Below, piece by piece: positions 21,541-64,000 of a DNA stretch of 64,000 nt. The notes beneath the pieces were generated by a model. It searched no databases. It saw nothing but the letters and a program-made list of their open reading frames with translations, and was not told where the DNA came from. The translations under genes and the position numbers were made by a program. This DNA is from an uncultured beta proteobacterium. GTDB taxonomy: Bacteria; Pseudomonadota; Gammaproteobacteria; Burkholderiales; Casimicrobiaceae. Where the stretch lies: contig CAWKAQ010000011.1 in assembly GCA_963847585.1 (NCBI GenBank), forward strand, positions 89,771-153,770, written 5' to 3'. Position 1 is the stretch's first letter, and each line of letters opens with the position of its first letter.

Positions 21541-25618
<4,078 letters not shown>

Positions 25619-25691
25619 TGCCAGCCTCGGCAACGGTTCTCACGGGATTTGCACAGTTGCAGCTCGGACACGGAATATTCGGGAGTAACGC

Positions 25692-29921
<4,230 letters not shown>

Positions 29922-29937
29922 CAGTGCAATCGTGACT

Positions 29938-29972
29938 AAAAAGCCGGCGGATCGATCCGCCGGCTTTTTTTT
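29938..29972 (+). terminator. rho-independent terminator after rpoC
   Basis: Perfect palindrome GCCGGCGGATC/GATCCGCCGGC (29943..29964) followed by T8 (29965..29972). An A5 tract precedes the stem, so it may act bidirectionally. Confidence 0.85.
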
Positions 29973-30039
29973 GCCGCCATTGCCCGACCGGAGCCCCTTT
30001 GAGCACTCCTGCGCCCCGGGTTTGGCGCGGTCGGATGCG

Positions 30040-30068
30040 TTGACATACCGAGCATAAGCCCTTAAAAT
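30040..30068 (+). promoter_or_regulatory. near-consensus sigma70 promoter upstream of rpsL
   Basis: TTGACA (30040..30045), a 17-nt spacer, then TAAAAT (30063..30068). Confidence 0.55.
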
Positions 30069-30190
30069 TGACGGTCTTTTCGCCCCTCACCGGGTTTTGG
30101 CTCGGCCTTGAAGCCGGGTGCCGGTGGGGCGCGCGTACCCGGCCGCATCGCCCCGTTGTTCGGGACCATGTCGGCCGAGGCGCAAGAAAG

Positions 30191-30228
30191 GTGGCCTGGG
30201 CAGACGATGCCGAGGCCACTTTGATTTA
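30191..30228 (+). terminator. terminator-like hairpin inside the rpsL leader (attenuator or end of a short transcript)
   Basis: GTGGCCTGGGCA-GACGA-TGCCGAGGCCAC is a 12-bp stem with one mismatch, followed by TTTGATTTAT. It lies about 120 nt downstream of the predicted start and 90 nt upstream of the rpsL ATG. Confidence 0.4.
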
Positions 30229-30318
30229 TGTGCTTCAAAAAATCGCGTCCGGAAAACGGTTTGCCGCGCTTGTCGGCATACCGGCCCGGGCGGTGGAAAA
30301 ACGAGCGGAACGGAAAGC

Positions 30319-30696
30319 ATGCCAACGATCAATCAGCTGGTGCGGAAGGGCCGCGTGGCCCCGGTTTCGAAGAGCAAGGTGCCGGCGCTGAAGCGCAGCC
30401 CGCAGAAGCGCGGCGTGTGCACGCGCGTCTACACGACCACGCCGAAGAAGCCGAACTCTGCGCTGCGCAAGGTCGCCAAGGTGCGGCTGACCAACGGCTT
30501 CGAGGTCATCAGCTACATCGGCGGCGAAGGCCACAATCTGCAGGAGCACTCGGTCGTGCTGATTCGCGGCGGCCGCGTCAAGGACCTGCCTGGCGTTCGC
30601 TACCACATGGTGCGCGGCGCGCTCGATACGGCCGGCGTCAAGGATCGCAAGCAGAGCCGCTCCAAATACGGCGCCAAGAAGCCCAAGGCGGCTTAA
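30319..30696 (+). CDS. rpsL: 30S ribosomal protein S12
   Basis: [12 protein letters not shown]...[34 protein letters not shown] at 30319 within ORF 30118..30696. Confidence 0.95.
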
Positions 30697-30719
30697 AGAC
30701 TGAACGGAACGAGAAGCAT

Positions 30720-31190
30720 ATGCCACGACGCAGAGAAGTTCCCAAGCGCGAAATCCTGCCGGATCCGAAATATTCGAACAGCGATGTTGCGAAGTTCGTC
30801 AACGTGCTGATGAGCCAGGGCAAGAAATCGGTCGCCGAGCGCATCGTCTACGGCGCTTTCGAATCGATCGCGAAAAAAGGCGGCAAGGATCCGCTCGAGG
30901 TCTTCAACCAGGCGCTGTCGAATTCGAAGCCGATGGTCGAGGTCAAGAGCCGGCGCGTCGGCGGCGCGAATTTTCAGGTGCCGGTCGAAGTACGTCCGGT
31001 GCGCCGGGTTGCGCTGGCGATGCGGTGGCTCCGCGAAGCGGCGCGCAAGCGCGGCGAGAAGTCGATGGGCCAGCGGCTGGCGGCCGAGCTGATCGAAGCG
31101 TCCGAGGGGCGCGGCGGCGCGGTGAAGAAACGCGAAGAGGTGCACCGGATGGCCGAAGCGAACAAGGCCTTCTCGCACTTCCGCTTCTAG
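30720..31190 (+). CDS. rpsG: 30S ribosomal protein S7
   Basis: [31 protein letters not shown]...[15 protein letters not shown] at 30720. Confidence 0.95.
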
Positions 31191-31261
31191 ACGGACAACA
31201 TGAACCAGCGGCGGCGGACCCGAGTGGCAATTCCCCGCAGGCATTCAGGCATTGAGAAAAC

Positions 31262-33332
<2,071 letters not shown>

Positions 33333-33402
33333 AGCGGATGATCAATCGCGACAGTCCCGACAATCCCGACAAGGGACTCTGAGAAGTAACAAGGAAGACA
33401 TC

Positions 33403-51748: not shown

Positions 51749-53740
51749 TCACTCGGCCGCCGCGATGCCGGCCAGCGCGCCAAGCCGCCGGCGCACCGCG
51801 AGGCGGTAGCGCCGATCGGAAACGGCGACAAAGCCGCCGAGCGCCATGACGAACGCGCCAAGCCAGATCCAGTCGACGAACGGTTTCAGATAGATGCGCA
51901 CACCCCACGCGCCGGCGGTCGCGCCGTCACCGCCGACCGCCTCGCCAAGCGAGACATAACGATCGCCGGAGAGTGCAGTATCGATCGCCGCGATGGTCAT
52001 CGTCTGGCCGGATGCGTTGTAAATGCGCTTTTCCGGATGCAGCGTCTCGATCAGGTGCCCGTCCCGGCGAACCTCGACGGTGCCGACCAGCGCCCGGTAA
52101 TTCGGGCCCGGCGCGGGCGTTACGCCGAGGAAAGCGAATTCGTACGGGCCGACGGCGACGCGCTGCCCGACGTCGAGCCGCACGTCGCGTTCGATCTCGT
52201 ACCCCTTGACCAGCGTGACGCCGACGATGAAAACGCCGACGCCGAAGTGCGCGAGCAGCATGCCGTAATAGGAGGGCGGATTCGCGGCGAGCCTCGCCCA
52301 CAGATTGCCGCGATGCGAGCCTTTGAGCCGCTGCCACAGATTGACCGCGGTGGTCGCGAACAGCCACAGCGCGAGAAACAGACCGACGGCGATCAGCGGC
52401 GACCAGCGCCCGAGCACGAACGGCAGCAGCAGCGCGCTGACCAGCGCGACCGCCAGCGCCCATTTGAGTCGTGCCGCAAGCTCGGGCACCGCGGCGCGGT
52501 TCCACCGCGCGATCGGACCCACACCCATCAGGAAGACGGCTGGCGCCAGCAACGGGTAGAACACCGCTTCGAAGTACGGCGGCCCGACCGAAATCTTGCC
52601 CAGGTCGAGCGCGTCGAGGAACAGCGGGTAGAGCGTTCCGAGCAGCACGCTCGCCATCGCGACGATCAGCACGATGTTGTTGGCGAGCAGCATCGACTCG
52701 CGCGAAACCAGCGCGAACGAGCCGCCGAGCCCGACGCTGCCGGCGCGCCAGGCGAACAGTGCCAGCGAGCCGCCGATCACGATCGCCAGAAAGGCGAGGA
52801 TGAACACGCCGCGCGCCGGATCGGTCGCGAAGGCGTGCACCGAGGTGAGCACGCCGGAGCGCACCAGGAAGGTCCCGAGCAGCGACAGCGAAAAGGCAAG
52901 GATTGCGAGCAGCACCGTCCAGCTGCGGAAGGCGCCGCGCTTCTCCGTAACGGCCAGCGAATGGATCAGCGCGGTGCCGGTGAGCCAGGGCATGAACGAT
53001 GCGTTCTCGACCGGGTCCCAGAACCACCATCCGCCCCAGCCGAGCGTGTAGTAGGCCCAGCCGCTGCCCAGCGCGATGCCGGTCGTGAGAAACGCCCACG
53101 CGACCGTCGTCCAGGGTCGCGACCAGCGCGCCCAGGTCGCATCGAGACGGCCGCCGATCAGCGCCGCCAATGCGAACGCGAACGCGACCGAAAAACCGAC
53201 ATAGCCCATGTACAGCAGCGGCGGATGGAACACCATGCCGGGATCCTGCAACAGCGGATTCAGATCGCGCCCTTCGGGTGCGGGCGGGATCAGCCGGGCG
53301 AACGGGTTCGAGGTGAACAGCAGGAACAGCAGGAAGCCGACGCTGATCAAGCCCATCACCGACAGCACGCGCGCGGCCAGCGCGTCAGGAAGATTGCGCG
53401 AAAAGGCCGACACGGCGCAGCTCCAGCCGGTGAGCATCAGGGCCCACAGCAACAGCGATCCTTCGTGCGAGCCCCAGGTTGCCGCGATGCGGTAGTGCAA
53501 TGGCAATTCCGAGTTCGAGTTGGAGGCGACGTTCTGCACCGAAAAATCGTTGGTTGCGAACGACCATGCGAGACACGCGAACGCGACGGCGACAAGCACG
53601 AATTGCATCCGCGCCGCCGGCCGCGCCAGCGCCATCATCCGCTGGCGGTTGAGCGCGGCGCCCAGCATCGGGACGATGCCCTGCGTTGCGGCGACCAGCA
53701 GCGCCAGGATCAGTGCGAAATGGCCGAGCTCTGGGATCAT
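51749..53740 (-). CDS. ccmF: cytochrome c heme lyase subunit CcmF
   Basis: Intact 663-aa [18 protein letters not shown]..., [11 protein letters not shown], and the Trp-rich motif [12 protein letters not shown]. Confidence 0.95.
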
Positions 53741-54204
53741 CTGTCCGCCTTTGTCTCGTGCAGGCTCGGCATCGTCATTCCCTGCCTCGCTTTGTCGATT
53801 GCCGCCTGTGCCTGCGGCGGCATGTAGTTGGCATCGTGCTTGGCAAGCACTTCGGTAGCGTGGAAGCTGCCATCGGCCGCCAGCGATCCCTGCGCGACGA
53901 CGCCTTTGCCCTCCTTGAACAGGTCGGGAAGGAGGCCCGTGTAGCTGACCGGTATCGTGCGCGCGGTATCGGTCACACGGAAGTGCACGGTCAGGCTGTC
54001 GCGGTCGCGGGTGAGACTGCCTGCCTCGACCATGCCGCCGATGCGAAACGGGCGGCCGCGCGGTGCTTCGTTGGCAGCGACCTGCGACGGCGTGAAGAAG
54101 AACACGAGATTGGACTGGAACGCGTTGAGCACCAGCGCAGTGGCGACGCCGAGCAGCGCGAGCCCGCCCGCGATCCAGCCGAAGCGGCGCGTCCGCGGCT
54201 TCAC
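53737..54204 (-). CDS. ccmE: heme chaperone CcmE
   Basis: GTG at 54204. [29 protein letters not shown]...FFFTPSQV...[11 protein letters not shown]...[13 protein letters not shown] (the heme-binding His region). Its TGA overlaps the ccmF ATG. Confidence 0.9.
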
Positions 54205-54360
54205 TGCGAAGGCTCCCGGCCGCCGGCCGCGCGTCGCGCCGCGCGCGAGACGCGCACGGACCAGGACGAGTTCGGCGGCGATCGCCAGTGCGCAGGCCGC
54301 GTACGAGCCCCAGACGTAGAATCCGTACCCGCCCATGGAGAAGAATTCGGCGATGCTCAT
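54201..54360 (-). CDS. ccmD: heme exporter protein CcmD (3' end unresolved; reads in frame into ccmE)
   Basis: [34 protein letters not shown] is the typical CcmD. Its ATG overlaps the ccmC TGA. As written there is no stop before ccmE. A TGA at 54203..54201 (GTGA with the ccmE start) is reached only after a +1 shift in the last ~30 nt. Confidence 0.75.
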
Positions 54361-55101
54361 CGCGCGGCCTTGGCTGCGAGCGCGACCTCGCCCGCCCATC
54401 CGGCGTGGCGCTCGCGTTCGAGGATTATCGCGCGCACGCGGGTCAGCGCGATGGCGATGGAATAGAACCAGGCGGCCAGCGCCATCAGCAGCATGCCGGC
54501 CAGCATCACCGCGGCCATCGTCGGTGCCGACGTCAGGCTGACGCTCGCTCCCTGGTGCAGCGTGTTCCACCATTTCACCGAGAAATAGATGATAGGGACG
54601 TTGACCGCGCCGACCAGCGCCAGCAGCGCGCTGGCGCGATCGGCGCGGCGCGGCTCGTCGATCGCCTGGCGCAGTGCCATGTAGCCGAAGTAGAGGAACA
54701 GCAGGATGAGCTCCGAGGTCATTCGCGCGTCCCAGGCCCAGTAGGTGCCCCAGGTGGGCTTGCCCCAAAGCGCGCCGGTGATCAGCGCCAGGGCGGTGAA
54801 CAGCGCGCCGGTCGGGGCCAGCGCCTGCGCCATCATCGCCGCCAGGCGGGCATTGAACATCAGCGACATCGCGCACCAGAAGGCCATCACCAGGTAGATG
54901 AACATCGACATCCACGCCGTCGCCACGTGCACGAATATGATCCGGTACGCGTCGCCCTGTTGCGCGTCGGTCGGCGCTGCGATCAGCCCGAGATAGAGTC
55001 CCGCCGCCGCAAACACCGCCGCGGCGCCGCCGAACCACGGCGTGAGGCGCGCAGCCAGCGGAAAGAACGACGCCGGTGACGCGAAATCGGAACCAGTTCA
55101 A
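54357..55101 (-). CDS. ccmC: heme exporter protein CcmC (+1 break at about 55083)
   Basis: TTG start 8 nt after GGAGG (MNWFRF), then [33 protein letters not shown]...[19 protein letters not shown] and the WWD motif [15 protein letters not shown] (ORF 54357..55016). Confidence 0.88.
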
Positions 55102-55117: not shown

Positions 55118-55828
55118 TCAATCGAGCGCCATGCGCACCGCGGCCGCAGCGGCGAGCGTCGCGCCGACCAGCGAAGCCATCAGCGCGGCTGCGAGCAGCG
55201 ACAGCTCGGCCGTGGCGCCCAGGCCCGTGCGCACCGTATCGACCGCGCCTGCGCCGAAAATCAGGACCGGAACGTATAGCGGCAGGACCAGCAGCGCCAG
55301 CAGCGCGCCGTTGCGCAAGCCCAGCGTCAACGCGGCGCCGACGGCGCCCATCAGCGACAGAGTCGGCGTTCCCAGCAACAGGCCGAGCGCCAGCACGGTG
55401 AGCTCGTCGCGCCCGAGGCCGAATTGCAGTCCCAGCAGCGGCGAGGCCGCCACCAGCGGCAGGCCGGTTGCGAGCCAGTGCGCCGCTATTTTACCGGAGA
55501 TCAGGGCCGGCAGCGGATACGGCGACAACGCCATCTGCTCGAGCGTGCCATCGGCGAAATCCATCGCGAACAGGCGCGGCAGCGCGAGCAGCGAGGCCAG
55601 CAGTGCGGCGATCCAGAGCACGCCCGGCCCCAGCGCACGAAGCAGCGCCGGGTCGGGACCGACGCCGAGCGGAACGAGGGCGACGACCATCACGTAGAAC
55701 AGCAGCTGCACGCCGAGCTCGGCCTTCGAGCGCAGTGCGAGGCGCAAATCGCGCCGCATCGCCCACGCCACTCCGTGCCACGCACCGGGCGGCGAGGGCG
55801 CTTGCGCCTGTGCTTCCACTGCCGTCAT
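55118..55828 (-). CDS. ccmB: heme exporter membrane protein CcmB
   Basis: MTAVEAQAQ...[27 protein letters not shown]...[11 protein letters not shown]... Its ATG overlaps the ccmA TGA (ATGA at 55828..55825). Confidence 0.9.
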
Positions 55829-56440
55829 GACAACGACAGGCCGCGCACCGACGATCCTGACAATGCGATGTCCTGATGGGTCGCGATAATCGCCATCCCG
55901 CCTCGAGCGAGGTGCGTCCCTATCACGTCGCACAGCAGCGCGACGCCTGCGGTGTCCAGCGCCGCAGCCGGTTCGTCGAGAATCCAGAGCGGACGCGGCA
56001 CCAGCGCCAAACGCGCCAGGCCGATGCGTCGACGCTGGCCCATCGACAGCGCGCGCGCCGGCAACGCGCGCTGCCGCTCGAGCGACCACAGAGCGAGCGC
56101 GGCGACGATCGCATCGCTGGCGGCGCTGCCGTCGTGCAGGCTCGCGAGCGAAGCGAGATTTTCCTCGGCGGTCAGCTCGTCCTTCAACGCTGCGGCGTGG
56201 CCGATGTAGGTGACGCGCCGCACGCAAGTCAGGATCGAATGGCGCAACCGGAACGCCTCGCCACGACAATGTGCCCTGCGCGGCATGCGACAGGCCTGCC
56301 GCAGTGCGCAGCAACGTCGTCTTGCCGCTGCCATTGGCGCCGGTCACCAGCAAGGCGTCGCCGGGCGCCAGCTTGAAATCGATGCCCGAGAATAAGGTCG
56401 TGGTGCCGCGCTGCGCGGCCAGCTGCTTCGATTCCAGCAT
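55825..56440 (-). CDS. ccmA: heme exporter ATP-binding protein CcmA (+1 break at about 56255)
   Basis: MLESKQLAAQRGTTTLFSGIDFKLAPGDALLVTGANGSGKTTLLR (Walker A), then YIGHAAALKDELTAEENL, LSMGQRRRIGLARL and WILDEPAAALD in ORF 55825..56334. Confidence 0.88.
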
Positions 56441-56579: not shown

Positions 56580-57751
56580 ATGCCTCGGTCGTCCGGAGTC
56601 GCAGTGCGCCTCGCCCGATGCGCCGCCGCGTGCATGCCCGCGATACTCGCGCTCGCAGTCGTCACGCTGACGACCCCCGCGCGGTGCTATCACCGCCATT
56701 CGTCCCGAAGAGCCCGCTGATCGCCGAAGTCGGGACGTCCGTTCATGGCGAGCTTCATCCCGATGAACAGCCATCTGCCCAAGTATCCGGTAGATGTGGT
56801 CGCTCAGTCCGGGCAATTGCCTGGCGGGATCCGGGATCAGCACTGGATGCCAATACCGGGACGCTGTCGGGTACGCCGGTCAAAGCGGGGACGTTCAACT
56901 GCATCGATCGTCGCCATCGACACCTTTCCCGATCCGATCACGACGGCGCAGAGGGCGTTCACCCTGGTGATCGAGCCGGACTGTGCTCGAACCGTCGATC
57001 AGCAGCGGTGCGCCGCCACCGGCGACGGCGGGCTCGTCCTATGCATTCCTGGTGAGCGCGACCGGCTCGTCCGGCGCCGGTGCTGTCGGTCGCCGGGCTG
57101 CCGGCCGGTCTTTCCTTCGATGCCGCGTCGGATCAGATCAGCGGCACGCCGGAGGCCGCGGGTGCGTCGACTTGACGGTCACGGCGAACAACGGCTGCAA
57201 CGCGGCGGCGGTGCAGACATTCACGCTCACCGTAGACCGCGCGGCGACGACGCTGTCGCTGGCCGCGCTGCCACAGGTCGCCGTGTTCGGGCAGCCGGTG
57301 ACCGTAGCGCTGGTCGCGTCCGGAGGTCCGGCGTCGCCGCAGGGTGCGGTCCAGCTTTGCGTACGCGGCACCGGGACGTTCTGCGGGCCGCCATTCGACA
57401 CCGTGCCGCCCGGCCACGCCGCCGGAAAACATCGCCGCGCCGCTGTCCGGTGCGCTCGACCCGAACGGCCGCGCCGACTTCCGCTTGACGGGGCTGACGA
57501 TCGACGCCTTCACCTTGTCGGCCTTCTACGCGGGCGACAGCTCGCACTTGCCGGCAGGCGCGGGACCCGTCGATGAGCTGGTGATCAAAGGCGTCCTGTT
57601 GCCGTTGACGCCGGACGGGAAGGCGAGTCGTGCGGCGTCGGGATCCGACCCGGGCGCGATTCCCGCGCTTTCGTCGATCGGATTGGCACTGCTTTCCGTC
57701 GCGGTCGCGGCGCTGGCGATGGCGGCACTGCGCCGGCGGACGCGCCGCTAG
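56580..57751 (+). CDS. secreted Ig-like repeat protein with IPTL-CTERM-type C-terminal sorting tail (at least ~8 frame breaks; possibly a pseudogene)
   Basis: ATG at 56580 gives a signal-peptide-like [34 protein letters not shown]. Pieces in all three frames join into Ig-like units ([87 protein letters not shown]..., [25 protein letters not shown]). It ends [32 protein letters not shown]. Confidence 0.55.
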
Positions 57752-57762
57752 CTCGTCTGGCC

Positions 57763-59978
57763 GTGCGTCTCGCCGCCGGGACGCTCGCCACGTGGCTGAT
57801 CGGCGCGCCGCGCTGGCTCGTCGGGCTGCTGATCATCGCCGTCTTCCTGCTGCATCCGCTGACGCAGTTCGGCAAGACGACGCTGCTGGCCAAGCTCGAA
57901 GCGATCTCGTACGACACGCGACTCAAGTTGACGTTGCCGAATCGTGGCGATCCGCAAGTCGTCATCATCGACATCAACGAGCCCAGCCTGCAGCGCGAAG
58001 GACGCTGGCCCTGGTCTCGCGACAAGCTGGCGCGGTTGACGACCCAATTGCTGGATCACTATCAGGCGCGAGCCGTCGGGTTCGACGTCGTGTTCGCCGA
58101 ACCGGACCGATCGTCGGGCATCGACGTCCTCGAGCGGCTGGCGCAGCGCGACCTCAGGGAAGACCGCGGCTATGTCGCGACGCTCGACAGGCTGCGCCCC
58201 GAGCTCGACTTCGACGCGCGGTTCGCCGACGCGATTCGCGGCAGGCCAGTCATCCTGGGGTTCGGCTTCACCTACGAGGCGCAGCAGATCGGCGCTCTCC
58301 CGCCGCCGTTGTTCCGCGCCCAGGACATCGGCGGCGGCATCATTCCGATCCAGGCGGCCGTCGGCTATACGGCGGCCATCGCGGAGCTCGCGCAGGCGGC
58401 CGCGGGCAGCGGACATGTCGACCCGTTTTTCGATGCCGACAACGTCGTGCGCCGCGTTCCGATGGTCGAGCTCTATCGCAACGCCTACTACCCGGCGCTG
58501 TCGCTGGCAATCGCGCGGGTCGTGCTCGAAGCGAAGCGGGTGACACCGCATTTCGATTCCGACCAACGGCTCGACGGTTTCGATATCGGCGGATTGGCCC
58601 TTCCCACCGCGGCGGACGGAACGGCGCTGATCCCGTTTCGCGGCAACGCCCAAGACTTTTCGCTACTATTCGGCCGCCGACGTGCTGGCGGGCAGCGCAC
58701 CGGCGGATTTTGCCGGCGCGATCGCGCTGGTCGGAACGACGGCCAAGGGACTGCAGGATCTGCGCCCGACTCCGCTGGCCGCCGACTTTCCCGGAGTCGA
58801 AATTCACGCCAGCCTGCTTTCGGGCATGCTGAACCAGGATTTGAAATCGGTTCCGGCGAACGCGAACGCGATCGAGGCGCTGATGATGCTGCTGACCGGG
58901 CTGGTCGTGCTGTTCGTCATCCCGTATCGGGACCCGGTGTTCAATGCCCTGGGCGTCGTCGCCGTCATGGGCCTGGTGGCCGCGGCGAACCTTCTGCTGT
59001 GGATCAAACTGAACGAAGTCGTACCGGTGGCCGCGACCTTGCTGATGCTCGCGGTCCTGTTCGGCTGGAACATGCTGGCCGGTTTCATGCGAGAGGAACG
59101 CAAGATCCGCAAGGTTTCGGCGATGTTCGGCGAGTACGTGCCGCGCGAGCGGGTCGCGCAAATGGTCGAAAGCGGAGAGAGATACAGCATGGTCGGCGAG
59201 AGCCGCACGATGACCGTGCTGTTCTGCGATGTGCGCGACTTCACGGCGCTGTCGGAAAACCTGCCGCCGCGCGAACTGTCGGCGATGCTGAACGCCTACC
59301 TGACGCCGATGACCGAGATCATCCACGCGCACCACGGAACGGTCGACAAGTACGTCGGCGATGCGATCATGGCCTTCTGGGGCGCGCCGATCGACAATCC
59401 GAATCACGCGCGCGACGCCGTTCTCGCCGCGCTGGCGATGCAGCGCAGAATGTCGTCGCTGGCACGAGGAGTTCAACAAGCGCGGCTGGCCCAGAGCTCG
59501 CCATCGGCGTCGGCATCAACAGCGGCGCGATGAACGTCGGCGACATGGGCTCGGAATTCCGCAAGGCTTACACGGTGCTCGGCGACGCGGTCAACCTCGC
59601 ATCGAGGCTCGAGGGATTGACCAAGGAGTACGGCGTCGCCGTCATCATCGGCGAGGACACGCGCGCCGCCGTGCCCGACATCCGCTGTCGCGAGATCGAT
59701 CGCGTGCGCGTAAAGGGCAGGGCGAACCCGGTCACGATATTCGAGCCCCTGCCGGAGGCGGAAGAGTCGACGCGCCGGCGAACTCGCGGCGTGGGAGAAA
59801 GCTCTGCTGCAATACCGCGAGCGGCGCTTTGCCGATGCGGCGGACGTCGCTTGCCGCCCTTGCCAGCGCGCATCCGGCAACGCGTCTCTACGCCTATTTC
59901 GCCCAGCGCTGCGCGATGTACGCCGCGGCACGACCGCCGGCGGATTGGGACGGCGCCACCAACTTCGCTACGAAATAG
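57763..59978 (+). CDS. CHASE2 sensor domain - class III adenylate/guanylate cyclase (five +1 breaks: about 58660, 59462, 59493, 59767, 59849)
   Basis: GTG start and a TM segment. The CHASE2-like periplasmic domain has [27 protein letters not shown] and FDVVFAEPD, and is followed by three TM segments. The cyclase core has [48 protein letters not shown] and [15 protein letters not shown]. The tail ...[15 protein letters not shown] has its stop at 59976..59978. Confidence 0.8.
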
Positions 59979-59998
59979 CCTGCGCCCGCCTGAGTGCG

Positions 59999-61535
59999 CT
60001 AGCAGCCGCCGGGCCCGCATTTGCGATACCCGACGACGCCCTCGATCACGCTGCCGGTGCGGGTGTTGAAATAGTAGTCCATGCCGATGCCGGACCCGCC
60101 GGGGCCCGCGAAAAAGCCGGCGAAGTTTCCGGCGACCAGCGGTTGACAAGCCGCCGCCGGCGCAACCCGTCGCTGCGCCGCCCGACGCCGCCGGTCGAGA
60201 AGCGGCCATTGACGATGCTGGCCGTGCCGCCCATCGTATAGTTCGCATCGTTGAAGCCGGCGGTGAGACCGGAGAGCCCGAGTTGAGCGGTGGTGAAGTT
60301 GACGTTGACCGTGCCGCCGGACACCAGCGTACCGACGGCGCCGGTGCCCGAATCGGTCGGCCGCGTGCCGCCGACCGCCGCGTACGAAACCTGTCCGGAT
60401 GTCGGCAGCGCCGTCGCCGTATTGCCGTAAATGTAATGCAGGTCGCCGCCGTCGTTGTGAACCAGCTGATTCCCCAGCGCCTGCGTAATCGTCGATCCGG
60501 GCCCGGACCAGCGGCCCCAGTTGAGCCCGCTGCCGGCGGCAAAGCCTGACGGGATCGACCCGTCGCTGCCGACGTCGGTCAGCGCTGCCGAGCCGAGATC
60601 GGCGCGAGAGCGAGCCGTTGTGGAACGAATGCAGCGCGCCGCCGACGATGCCGACCTGCAGACCAGGATTCGACGTCGAGTCGAGCTCAAGCGTGTAGCG
60701 ATCCGACCCGACGACGATCGTCTGCCCGGGCGCGAGCAAGCGCGAGTCGAGATCCTCCGTTGCCATGAACGTGAACGGCGCCTGCGGCAACGCCGGCGGC
60801 GGCGCGGTTTCGGGCACCTTGGCAAAACGCAATTCGGTCGGCGCGGTGCGCGCGACGCGCGCGCGCCGCTCGAGCTTGTCGGAAAGAAAATCAGGCGGTC
60901 CGAGCCAGCGCAGCGGCGCTTGTCCATCGGGCACGTAGAAAAATTCGTCGGCGCCGAACTCGCCGCTGCCGAAACCGTTGGCGACGACGACGCCGCCTTC
61001 GTAGGCCCCGCCGTACATTCCGGAACCCACCTCGGCGCCGCGGTTCCTGCACTGGCCGGCGGCGCAGATCTGGACCTGATAGTGCGTACCGCGAATGCCT
61101 ATCGTCGCCTGCGTGGTCAACAGCTGGTACTGGTCGCGGTTCAGTTTGCCGATCTGTCCGGTCAACGTGCGGAATCCGCCGCGCACCAGCCGGAAGACCG
61201 CGGCCTCGCTGCCGTCCTGCTTGCCGGTGAAATTGAAGCGCTCGATGCGAAACTCGGTGTCGGGCTTGAGCGCGACCAGCGCGTCGTCGCTGAAGCGGAT
61301 CTGCGCATAACTGTCGGCTCCGGTGACGACGCTGTCGCCGGCGCCGACCAGCGCGCCCGCGGCCAGACGGACTACGCTCGCCGCCACGGACGACGCTGAC
61401 GTCGCCGACCGACAACAGGACCTTCCCGGCCGTCTGCGCAAAGGCGAAATTCACGGTGAGCGCGCAGACGAGCAGCAAGCCGAAACGCAACGCGAGCTTG
61501 CACCGGAGCGAGATGGCCGTGCTATTTGAATTCAT
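59999..61535 (-). CDS. secreted FecR-domain protein with TbpB-like C-terminal beta-barrel region (four frame breaks: about 61373, 60604, 60180, 60149)
   Basis: The signal peptide [33 protein letters not shown] has no canonical lipobox. FecR-like region: [66 protein letters not shown]-terminal region: [43 protein letters not shown]...[27 protein letters not shown]...GVVGYRK. The ATG lies 11 nt upstream of the upstream gene's stop. Confidence 0.6.
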
Positions 61536-62886
61536 AGCGAACTTTCAATACGCCGAGGTGGCGCGTGTATTCGTAGAGCTCGAGATTGGACGTGTTTTTC
61601 GCATACCGGTATTCGCCGCGCACACTCAGATTCCGGTTGACCAGGTAGATCGCACCGAGGCCCACGCCCAGGTTGCGGTCGCGCCGCGTCACGTCGAGCA
61701 GCGGGATCGGCGCGTCGTAGTCGCTTTGCGCGTACGCGAGGCCGGCGTTCAGCGCCCAGAAGGGCGACGGTGAAACGGTGACGTCGACGCTCGCGCCGAC
61801 GATGCCGCGACCGAGATCGCCGCGGCCCTCGCGATTGTGCTCGTCGCCGTAGAATACCGTCGCGTTGAGCACCGGCTGCCAGCGGCGCAGCCACACTTGC
61901 CGATAGCTGGCGCTCAACGCGCTCAAATCGGCATCGCGTGCGGCGTTGTCGCCGGCGTAAGCGATGCGCGCGTATTGCGGCGCAAGCGCGAACGAAGACA
62001 GTTCCGAGACTTGTCGGCGCCACTCGAAGACGACGCCGTCGGCCCAGCGATAGCGCGATCCGTCGAGCGCGATCTCGCCGTGAGCATACGCCAGGGAGTA
62101 CTCGTTGCGATCGGCCCGATAGCTCGCGCCGGCCGCCGCGCCGTAATTCGCCAGATTGAATTCCGAGGCTGACGCGTAGAACGTGCCGCCGCCGTAGACG
62201 CTGGCATTGACCGTCAATCCGGCGGACAGAGGATGGCGAATCTCGGCGCCTGCCGCCAGCCATCCGAACGCCGACTCCTTTTGGACGCCGAAAGCATCGA
62301 CGGTGACCGGACCCAGCACCGGCAACCCGATGCTGGCTTGCGCAACGCCGGCATTGGCGTTGCTGTCGTAACCGCCGCCGAGCTCGACGAACGCCGTGCG
62401 CCGCCCGCGATAGCGGGCCTCGCGATCGGTCAGCGCCGCAAGATAGCGATCGATGCCGGCCTGCACCTCCGGTGGCGGCTGGCTTCGGGCCACTGCCTCG
62501 AATTCTTCGCGCGAGCGCACGTCGTCGCCGGCGTAGAAATAAGCGCGCGCCAGCTCGAGGCGGGCGCGCGCGTCGTCGGGAAATTGCAGCACGTAACGCT
62601 CGAGTGCCAGGACGCCTTCGCCGGAGCGGCCGATGTCGACGGCCGCGACGCCGCACCACAGATCGAATTCCGGCGGGCGCTCGGGGGCGTCGATCGACGT
62701 TGCGCAATGGCGGGCGTACGCTGCGGCGGAGTCGCCGGCCTCGACCGCGGTGCGCAAGTCGTCGACCGGAGCGGCGAGGGCGGCAATCGCGAAAGCGCTC
62801 GAGCACACCGCGATCGCAACGATCGCCGCATGCCGGCGCGGGCTCGAACGCTGCGCCAAGGAGTCGCCGTCCGAACGCTGTGCCAT
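61522..62886 (-). CDS. Slam / DUF560-like outer-membrane protein (TPR N-domain plus beta-barrel; proposed type XI secretion component)
   Basis: Intact ORF 61522..62925. The likely start is the ATG at 62886 (MAQRSDG...AIVAIAVCSSAFAIAALA signal peptide). TPR-like LALERYVLQFPDDARARLELARAYFYAGDDVRSREEFEAV and PPPEVQAGIDRYL, then about 300 aa of alternating beta-strand pattern from GGGYDSNANAG to [11 protein letters not shown]. Confidence 0.55.
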   Translation of the reverse strand: MAQRSDGDSLAQRSSPRRHAAIVAIAVCSSAFAIAALAAPVDDLRTAVEAGDSAAAYARHCATSIDAPERPPEFDLWCGVAAVDIGRSGEGVLALERYVLQFPDDARARLELARAYFYAGDDVRSREEFEAVARSQPPPEVQAGIDRYLAALTDREARYRGRRTAFVELGGGYDSNANAGVAQASIGLPVLGPVTVDAFGVQKESAFGWLAAGAEIRHPLSAGLTVNASVYGGGTFYASASEFNLANYGAAAGASYRADRNEYSLAYAHGEIALDGSRYRWADGVVFEWRRQVSELSSFALAPQYARIAYAGDNAARDADLSALSASYRQVWLRRWQPVLNATVFYGDEHNREGRGDLGRGIVGASVDVTVSPSPFWALNAGLAYAQSDYDAPIPLLDVTRRDRNLGVGLGAIYLVNRNLSVRGEYRYAKNTSNLELYEYTRHLGVLKVRYEFK

Positions 62887-62961
62887 GCCCGCGCCGCCCT
62901 CCCGAATTTGGCTGGCGGCGATCATAGCACGGCATCGCGATGCTTCCGGCGGAACGACGGC

Positions 62962-64000
62962 CTACGGTACGACCTGGTCTATCGTGATGCGCAAGCCCGT
63001 CGCGCCAGGCTTGACCGGCCCGCTTTTGCCGAACAGGTCACCGGGCTGCGGAAGCGCATTGCCGGTTTTGCGACAGGCGCGCTTCGACGATCACTTCGCT
63101 CGCACTCGAGAGCTTGGCCCCCGCGGCCATGCTCATCGCATCGTCCAGCGCGAAGTCCTTCGGCAATTCGCTGGCCGCAATGCGCATCGCGGCCAGCGGC
63201 ATGCGCGGTCCAGTCGGAGCGCGCGCGAAAATGAAAACGGTGTCGGTCGGTGCGACTTTTGACGCCAGACTCGGGCTCACTGCGACATGACCGCTGATCG
63301 CGCCGCCGTTGCCCGCGGCGCTGGCGCGCGGACCCGGCGCTCGCATCGTGTTCACCGCATCCGGCGCTCCGCCACCCAGCTCCGCGATCACGGCGGCAAC
63401 CTGCGTTGCGTCCTCGGAGCCGGGGGGCAACTGCGCGGCGAGCCGGTGCCAGTAGGCGAGCGCCTTGGCAGGATCGTGTGCCTCCATCGCCGCCGTCGCC
63501 GCCAAGGCCAGCGCCTTCCCGTGTTTCGGATCGATGGCCAGTGCGCGCTCTACCAGCGCGAGCGGCTTGCCGGCGAGGTGGCGACCCTGCACCATCCCCA
63601 ACGTATCCGCGTAATCGGCGAGCAGATCGGGGTCTGTCCGGCGCCCGCGCGAGCGCCTTCGTGTACGCTTCCGCCGCCGCGGGAAAGCGACCAAGCACGT
63701 AATACGAGCGCGCCAGCAGCGCCCAACCTTCGGCGTTGTCCGGATGCTGCTCGAGCCGACGCTCCAGCGCGCCGACCATCGCGGCGATCTGCGGGTCGCT
63801 CAATTCCTGTCCCCCGTCGGTGGCCGCGGCGACGGCGGAGGCTGCCGGATCGCCGAGACGGCCGTAGAGGAAGATCGCCAGCACCGGAATACCGACCAGC
63901 AGTCCTATCGCCAGCGGCCAGGAGGGCCGTGCTGTCGCGCCGCGTGCGGGCGAGCGGTGCGGCGCGCCGATTTCGTCGGCAACGCGCTGCGCAAGATCCG
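62962..64000 (-). CDS. ccmI: cytochrome c-type biogenesis protein CcmI/CycH, C-terminal ~345 aa (5' end outside window; +1 breaks at about 63635 and 63070)
   Basis: WPLAIGLLVGIPVLAIFLYGRLGDP, then the TPR region QHPDNAEGWALLARSYYVLGRFPAAAEAYTKALARAPD/DPDLLADYADTLG...ALAIDPKHGKAL, then TVFIFARAPTGPRMPLAAMRIAASELPKDFALDD and the tail KTGNALPQPGDLFGKSGPV...ITIDQVVP (stop 62962..62964). Confidence 0.8.

Follow-up and report, generated by a model that had tools for sequence, protein, structure and literature searches.

A 64,000-nucleotide (nt) stretch of DNA from an uncultured member of the Casimicrobiaceae (Burkholderiales; GCA_963847585.1, contig CAWKAQ010000011.1, positions 89,771–153,770 of the forward strand), hereafter the window, carries on its minus strand two adjacent genes for a Slam/DUF560-like outer membrane protein and a FecR-domain protein which ends in a module composed of a "handle" and a putative β-barrel. 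The sequence evidence favors, with a probability that we place at roughly 60%, the interpretation that the two proteins are an exporter and its cargo in a type XI (Slam/DUF560) secretion system, functionally tied to a neighboring adenylate/guanylate cyclase with a CHASE2 sensor domain. The occurrence of a FecR-domain cargo beside a CHASE2 cyclase suggests a previously undescribed link between type XI secretion and signaling, that is, a known system with a new type of cargo. The original prediction, made from the sequence without database searches, had proposed the pair and its unusual cargo; the convergent cyclase played no part in that interpretation.

The gene for the outer membrane protein lies within an unbroken open frame of 467 amino acids (aa; 61522..62925, minus strand). 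Because its 487 homologs, some of which are named "surface lipoprotein assembly modifier," are 453–454 aa long, we prefer Met14 (position 62886) as the likely start codon, yielding a gene of 61522..62886 and a protein of 454 aa. The SlipAM/DUF560 profile of Pfam (PF04575) matches residues 224–462 of the 467-aa frame with 41.7 bits (cut-off, 22 bits) and spans positions 46–284 of the 288 in the model. The same scan returned a match to BBP2_2 and, in the N-terminal part, TPR_19 and TPR_16 at 24.5 bits each, just below or below their cut-offs. The AlphaFold2 (AF2) model based on 52 homologs is of good quality overall, with a mean predicted local distance difference test (pLDDT) of 85.4 and a predicted template modeling score of 0.75, and comprises helical repeats (residues 16–160) followed by 14 long strands (residues 162–453 according to DSSP; pLDDT of ~90 over the strands). 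We accept from these data a periplasmic TPR-like helical region (62407..62775, about residues 38–160), indicated by the modeled helices and the near-threshold TPR matches, and a predicted 14-stranded β-barrel (61525..62403, residues 162–454) which starts with the motif GGGYDSNANAG, invariant in all 52 homologs. When the barrel alone was superposed on PDB structures with Foldseek, the best match was the 14-stranded OmpG (template modeling score of 0.65–0.68); the top matches of the search were BcsC and PelBC, which share with the model the layout of TPR plus barrel, and no Slam structure was present among the 50 PDB matches listed. By its sequence and predicted architecture, the first gene product is a DUF560/Slam-type protein, as originally proposed, including the number of strands. 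A polysaccharide-export protein of the BcsC/PelB/PgaA type was ruled out: the model has 14 strands, Pfam favors SlipAM, and the gene that invariably adjoins it encodes a protein with a barrel module and not a polysaccharide synthase.

The stop codon of this gene (61522–61524) falls just behind the start of the gene for the FecR-domain protein (59999..61535, minus strand; ATG at 61535), resulting in the 14-nt overlap noted before; two gene callers place the start of the orthologous gene 15 codons further downstream, which would leave a 31-nt gap rather than an overlap. In three-frame translation, the gene is split over three frames by extra single bases, which alignment to two relatives (L004 and L003) locates to positions 61372, 60604, 60181, and 60152 (span 60152..61372), within 1–3 nt of the breaks given in the original prediction. 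Once these four 1-nt insertions are removed, the gene encodes a protein of 510 aa which shares 98% identity, along its full length, with an intact homolog, P0001. The N-terminal parts of the repaired protein agree with those first described. As read directly from the sequence, the protein begins with a Sec-type signal peptide (61437..61535, residues 1–33) with a basic n-region and a hydrophobic core, ending in NFAFA before QTAGK. There is no lipobox, and no conserved cysteine precedes C157 in the consensus of 57 relatives. The signal peptide is followed by a β-rich FecR-type domain (60905..61433, about residues 35–210) with AF2 strands throughout this region, the invariant cysteines C157 and C162, and a Pfam FecR match at residues 67–155 (40.8 bits against a cut-off of 24). 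A proline-rich, probably disordered linker of ~80 residues (60659..60904, about residues 211–292), for which AF2 yields no secondary structure and a pLDDT below 50 at residues 219–281, connects this domain to the C-terminal module. Across the FecR-domain protein as a whole, three cysteine pairs are invariant in the 57 relatives; the motif [24 protein letters not shown] is likewise present and conserved.

The C-terminal module of ~220 aa consists of the handle (60409..60658, about residues 293–375), recognized by profile A3 and by the motifs LNWGRW and [11 protein letters not shown], with W339, G340, R341, W342, H366, and Y367 being invariant, and of a putative 8-stranded TbpB_B_D-like barrel (60002..60408, about residues 376–510) with the invariant cysteines C457, C462, C505, and C510 and the last strand GVVGYRK. 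These boundaries derive from motif alignment with one relative, P0357, plus profile and Pfam coordinates, and not from a residue-level alignment. Profile A3 (218 positions), built for the module and searched against 1.84 billion representative sequences, retrieved 743 protein clusters (at 50% identity) with E ≤ 1e-3, in which the module recurs one to five times. P0357 is matched over the whole module (E = 1.5e-14) and passes the Pfam TbpB_B_D model on the very same stretch with 34.4 bits against a cut-off of 26. Among the 60 relatives scanned, TbpB_B_D was found in four and FHBP_C in one; P0345, with 40.9 bits, also counts among the evidence for homology of the module to TbpB_B_D. Because a match of profile A3 passes TbpB_B_D over the matched stretch, and because four of the 60 relatives do so, we consider the module homologous to this domain. 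The view that it is a divergent member of the barrel superfamily which marks type XI cargo is thereby supported through intermediate sequences. Of the original claim of a TbpB-type barrel at the cargo C-terminus, the relationship by sequence held, whereas a direct Pfam match did not materialize.

The proteins that carry the module have different N-terminal domains. Among the best 149 representatives, 82 combine a FecR-type N-domain with between one and five modules in tandem, the largest of these proteins reaching 3351 aa; the remaining N-domains are Lipase_3/phospholipase-like, Peptidase_M23, or unassigned. In Pacificimonas (Sphingomonadales), a 1938-aa protein contains four copies of the module, as judged by profile match, and is preceded by the same kind of outer membrane gene. 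To follow the pairing, we used a close set of 63 species-level genomes, nearly all of Casimicrobiaceae, 56 loci of which offered enough sequence for the upstream gene. In each of these 56 loci, the outer membrane gene is located directly upstream, on the same strand, and the pair is kept where the flanking gene cycH is lost. All nine informative distant loci, the lipase-type and Pacificimonas loci among them, likewise have an upstream gene of 435–470 aa, separated by 8–70 nt, whose product is homologous to the outer membrane protein of the window (E from 5e-144 to 6e-31). The co-occurrence anticipated for the two genes is therefore general in the loci analyzed. Since the outer membrane homolog adjoins the module gene whatever the N-domain, the combination of a constant C-terminal module and varied passengers beside one outer membrane protein fits the signature that would be expected of a dedicated exporter and its substrates.

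The third component is the gene for the CHASE2-domain adenylate/guanylate cyclase (57763..60048, plus strand; ~757 aa, frameshifted in the window), identified by the Pfam domains CHASE2 and Guanylate_cyc and by tblastn with the intact ortholog from L001. It is convergent to the FecR-protein gene, with the 3′ ends of the two overlapping by ~50 nt. Of 55 Casimicrobiaceae loci, 53 have the cyclase in this convergent arrangement. It also stands beside FecR-type cargo in two further lineages, where it is divergent (L069) or co-directional (L070); it was not seen at the loci with non-FecR cargo of the lipase or Pacificimonas type. Periplasmic CHASE2 sensors repeatedly have FecR-type domains as partners, and the convergent cyclase may argue for the FecR domain acting in the periplasm. 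In Burkholderia, genes for a FecR-domain protein (LysM-FecR) are paired with a CHASE2 sensor kinase, and a cluster in Campylobacterota comprising a CHASE2 cyclase, a FecR-domain protein, a "TPR domain-containing protein," and a phosphodiesterase has been noted in passing, with no secretion interpretation. In Sinorhizobium meliloti, the CHASE2 cyclases CyaK and CyaD1/D2 function downstream of an outer membrane protein, NsrA, and the targets of the cyclic AMP (cAMP) regulon include FecR-domain and TPR proteins.

Several side observations concern the cyclase and its surroundings in relatives. In L070, a gene for a cyclic nucleotide monophosphate (cNMP)-binding protein with Pyr_redox and 4Fe-4S domains (L070:11939–14371) overlaps by 4 nt the stop of a four-module FecR protein and belongs to one gene string with the CHASE2 cyclase and the Slam-like outer membrane protein. 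L069 encodes a second, short FecR-domain protein (253 aa; L069:533–1294) lacking the barrel module, next to a YjbH-like gene and near the cyclase and the Slam-like pair. In the metagenome-assembled genome SMAG_U4049 (L012, L051), the module is present as two paralogs, which share 80% and 55% identity with the C-domain of the window protein and are each accompanied by their own CHASE2 cyclase.

Starting from the domain content, the module's homology to TbpB_B_D, and its constant pairing with the outer membrane gene, we infer cargo recognition, export, and communication between the FecR domain and the cyclase. The outer membrane protein would recognize the C-terminal barrel in the periplasm and translocate the cargo, or no less of it than handle and barrel, through the outer membrane, in the way that Slam transports TbpB or hemophilin. 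The FecR domain would communicate with the convergent CHASE2 cyclase, for which two options can be envisaged. Export or surface display of the module may set the amount of FecR domain that reaches the cyclase, full export depleting the periplasm of FecR; alternatively, the FecR protein may relay an event at the cell surface to the cyclase, changing its output of cAMP or cyclic GMP (cGMP). A bolder arrangement, to which we assign a rather low probability, is a trans-envelope sensor made of the Slam-like protein, the FecR-handle-barrel protein, and the CHASE2 cyclase. The handle-barrel module(s) would be threaded to the surface by the type XI machine and would bind a ligand there in the manner of TbpB and hemophilin, the long linker would pass back through or along the barrel, and the N-terminal FecR domain, kept in the periplasm, would switch the cyclase.

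A number of results weigh against the interpretation of the locus as an exporter–cargo pair tied to the cyclase. In the Pfam/NCBIfam searches, no family model, TbpB_B_D (PF01298) and FHBP_C (PF08794) included, matched the C-terminal 220 aa of the window protein or the module of P0001, even at E ≤ 10, and the module profile had no match among PDB sequences at the same permissive threshold. A broad profile built from 95 module segments scored an fHbp sequence no better than 200 shuffles. Given these negative direct tests against Pfam, PDB, and fHbp, the link to TbpB_B_D rests on a minority of the relatives. The AF2 model of the cargo, based on 57 relatives, is poor (mean pLDDT of 57.9, below 50 at residues 465–510), and no 8-stranded barrel is seen in it. 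SlipAM scores are weak or nil for the outer membrane proteins of distant relatives, which places the family at the edge of DUF560. Furthermore, the 63 close loci represent essentially one family, so that common descent explains part of their synteny. The classical location of FecR domains is the periplasm, which is awkward to combine with full export. Finally, at four or five distant FecR-type loci, L066, L076, L077, and L078 among them, no cyclase was seen in the examined flanks. Additional searches with the cargo were uninformative: Foldseek of the poor model against PDB gave nothing below E = 0.1, a search of PDB sequences with P0357 gave a chance-level match only, and one with P0345 gave the NHBA/GNA2132 barrel at a non-significant E = 0.14.

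The loci in which the cyclase was not found, together with the outer membrane gene/module pairing in every informative locus, lend weight to an account in which a type XI exporter–cargo pair is genuine, the cyclase is a mere neighbor, and the FecR protein, taking no part in signaling, is secreted or displayed at the surface for binding or adhesion. An adhesin is further suggested by those relatives that have three to five modules and reach 1000–3351 aa, and there is a precedent in Leptospira, where the FecR-domain proteins LipL45 and Lsa33 have been described as a lipoprotein and a surface adhesin, respectively; the N-domain weakly matches the models of both, via the common FecR domain. However, the cyclase adjoins the pair in nearly all Casimicrobiaceae loci, it occurs in three gene orientations in three lineages and was seen only with FecR-type cargo, a cNMP-binding protein belongs to the L070 gene string, and the pairing of FecR with CHASE2 is independently known from Burkholderia and Campylobacterota. 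We regard a purely extracellular role for the FecR protein as clearly less probable than a functional tie to the cyclase, although it is the strongest of the competing accounts.

Less probable still is a system without export, in which the outer membrane protein serves as a docking site and the FecR protein stays in the periplasm as a fixed signaling bridge between the two membranes, its module binding the TPR region or plugging the barrel and its FecR domain contacting the CHASE2 domain. The classical periplasmic location of FecR domains and their pairing with periplasmic CHASE2 sensors agree with such a bridge, as do the long, disordered linker and the position of the S. meliloti outer membrane protein NsrA upstream of CHASE2 cyclases. 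Yet N-domains of the lipase-like and M23-peptidase kinds, both typical of secreted effectors, occur with the same pairing of outer membrane protein and module, the domain to which the module is homologous is so far known in exported cargo, and proteins with three to five modules are difficult to explain as periplasmic plugs. Overall, we consider the bridge improbable and retain the exporter–cargo pair tied to the cyclase.

The four frameshifts within 1.5 kb would, at face value, suggest that the cargo gene is a decaying pseudogene and that the system is dead in this organism. Nonetheless, single-base indels amount to ~60 per 8.5 kb around the locus in alignments with L004 and L003. They are found in every gene of these surroundings except the outer membrane gene and are as dense in cycH, the ccm genes, the He_PIG gene, and the cyclase gene as in the cargo gene. 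In L003, the nearest relative, the indels are different ones and affect its own outer membrane gene; apart from the insertions, the window protein is nearly identical to the intact P0001. The contigs of the relatives, which are annotated as Casimicrobiaceae, Burkholderiales, and point to a soil type of betaproteobacterium, are named as metagenome bins, which makes assembly error plausible. Given the density of indels across neighboring genes, the different ones in the closest relative, and the intact genes of other relatives, the frameshifts of the window are best read as assembly noise and not as gene decay; we reject the pseudogene reading as very unlikely. The indels fuse or split many open reading frames between positions 55500 and 64000, and probably over the entire window, in a pattern that resembles the errors of an unpolished assembly; examples are ccmA and ccmB (55118–56440), ccmD and ccmE (53737–55101), and the CHASE2 cyclase.

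An ordinary FecR anti-sigma regulator of iron uptake, placed by chance next to a Slam gene as in the hemophilin loci, can be dismissed as hardly credible: FecR regulators often neighbor type XI genes, but here a cleavable signal peptide leads straight into a FecR domain which is fused to a cargo-type module, the protein has no cytoplasmic anti-sigma domain and no transmembrane helix, and L001 and L002, two relatives with intact genes, encode no extracytoplasmic function sigma factor or TonB-dependent receptor within 10 kb.

The exporter–cargo pair resembles the type XI systems with soluble cargo (hemophilin Hpl/HphA and its secretor) and the Slam1-TbpB system in having TPR followed by a predicted 14-stranded DUF560 barrel, and an adjacent Sec-dependent protein ending in a handle and, here by homology, a TbpB_B_D-type barrel. 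A variable N-terminal "effector" attached to a constant targeting module further conforms to the effector-pedestal-barrel scheme of a recent cargo survey (Grossman et al. 2025). That survey lists about ten cargo architectures, none of which bears FecR, so that the FecR-type N-domain falls outside the described classes, as the original prediction had suspected; in the type XI literature, FecR is mentioned only as a neighboring iron regulator. The locus in the window also differs in having no TonB-dependent receptor or metal/heme context, in a barrel too divergent for recognition by Pfam, in its conserved neighbor, a CHASE2 cyclase, and in its host, a free-living soil betaproteobacterium rather than an animal-associated cluster 1 organism. 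Demonstrations of type XI secretion are known only from a few animal-associated systems exporting metal-, heme-, or host-binding proteins, and the environmental DUF560 groups outside cluster 1 have no characterized member. Tandem handle-barrel pairs such as those of the four-copy Pacificimonas protein recall the "Sphingomonas/Psychrobacter surface proteins" with multiple TbpBBD domains, which are predicted type XI cargo (Grossman et al. 2025); these, however, have proline-threonine repeat N-termini in place of FecR, and the window protein has a single module.

On the signaling side, the Burkholderia LysM-FecR and CHASE2 kinase operon and the Campylobacterota cluster are alike in encoding a signal peptide and FecR domain beside a CHASE2 sensor, and the Campylobacterota "TPR domain-containing protein," compared by description only, could be the same kind of outer membrane protein. 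The respective papers do not connect these genes with type XI secretion or a TbpB-type barrel, and the Burkholderia protein has LysM where the window protein has its barrel module. NsrA of S. meliloti, likened here by description only, is similarly an outer membrane β-barrel required for signal perception by CHASE2 cyclases, but is ~1200 aa long, has another layout, and has no proposed role in secretion. The similarity to FecA-FecR-FecI is one of logic only, with a FecR-type domain placed between an outer membrane barrel and a signaling output at the inner membrane; the system in the window has no TonB-dependent transducer, anti-sigma domain, or sigma factor, and a cyclic nucleotide would serve as its output.

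Directly upstream of the cyclase, and kept in most related loci, is a gene for an immunoglobulin (Ig)-like protein with an IPTL-CTERM sorting signal (56580..57751, plus strand; Pfam IPTL-CTERM and Big_3_5, with He_PIG in orthologs), which is possibly the fourth member of the gene set; L047 and L064 have this gene but not the cyclase. Over positions 56580–63998, comparison with L001 and L002 delineates a block of four genes, encoding the outer membrane protein, the FecR protein, the CHASE2 cyclase, and the Ig-like IPTL-CTERM protein. The block is flanked by cycH/ccmI (62974–63998, minus strand) and ccmABCDEFGH (~50.7–56.4 kb, minus strand) and therefore splits a set of genes for cytochrome c maturation; about nine related loci have lost cycH and kept the block. 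In two distant lineages, a common gene set flanks the module (L002:476–7047 and L070:14378–19942), comprising a small unannotated protein, an FHA plus multiheme-cytochrome-like protein, an HbpS-like protein, and a large SH3 or unannotated protein, which hints at further conserved partners, possibly redox- or heme-related. Elsewhere in the window, rpoB, rpoC, and fusA (22460–33382, plus strand) mark a core chromosomal region, which probably accounts for the purine and AT skew that is strong between ~16 and 56 kb.

The locus points to a large unrecognized class of cargo, represented by the 743 clusters, in which the most common passenger is a FecR sensor-type domain. Should the link to the cyclase be true, the repertoire of type XI cargo would extend from nutrient capture to signaling, CHASE2 sensors would gain a concrete upstream partner, and the pairing of a constant module with an outer membrane protein would predict cargo where the Pfam barrel model is blind. 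If, moreover, the components form a trans-envelope sensor, a secretion system would have been reused to wire a surface receptor to the synthesis of cAMP or cGMP.

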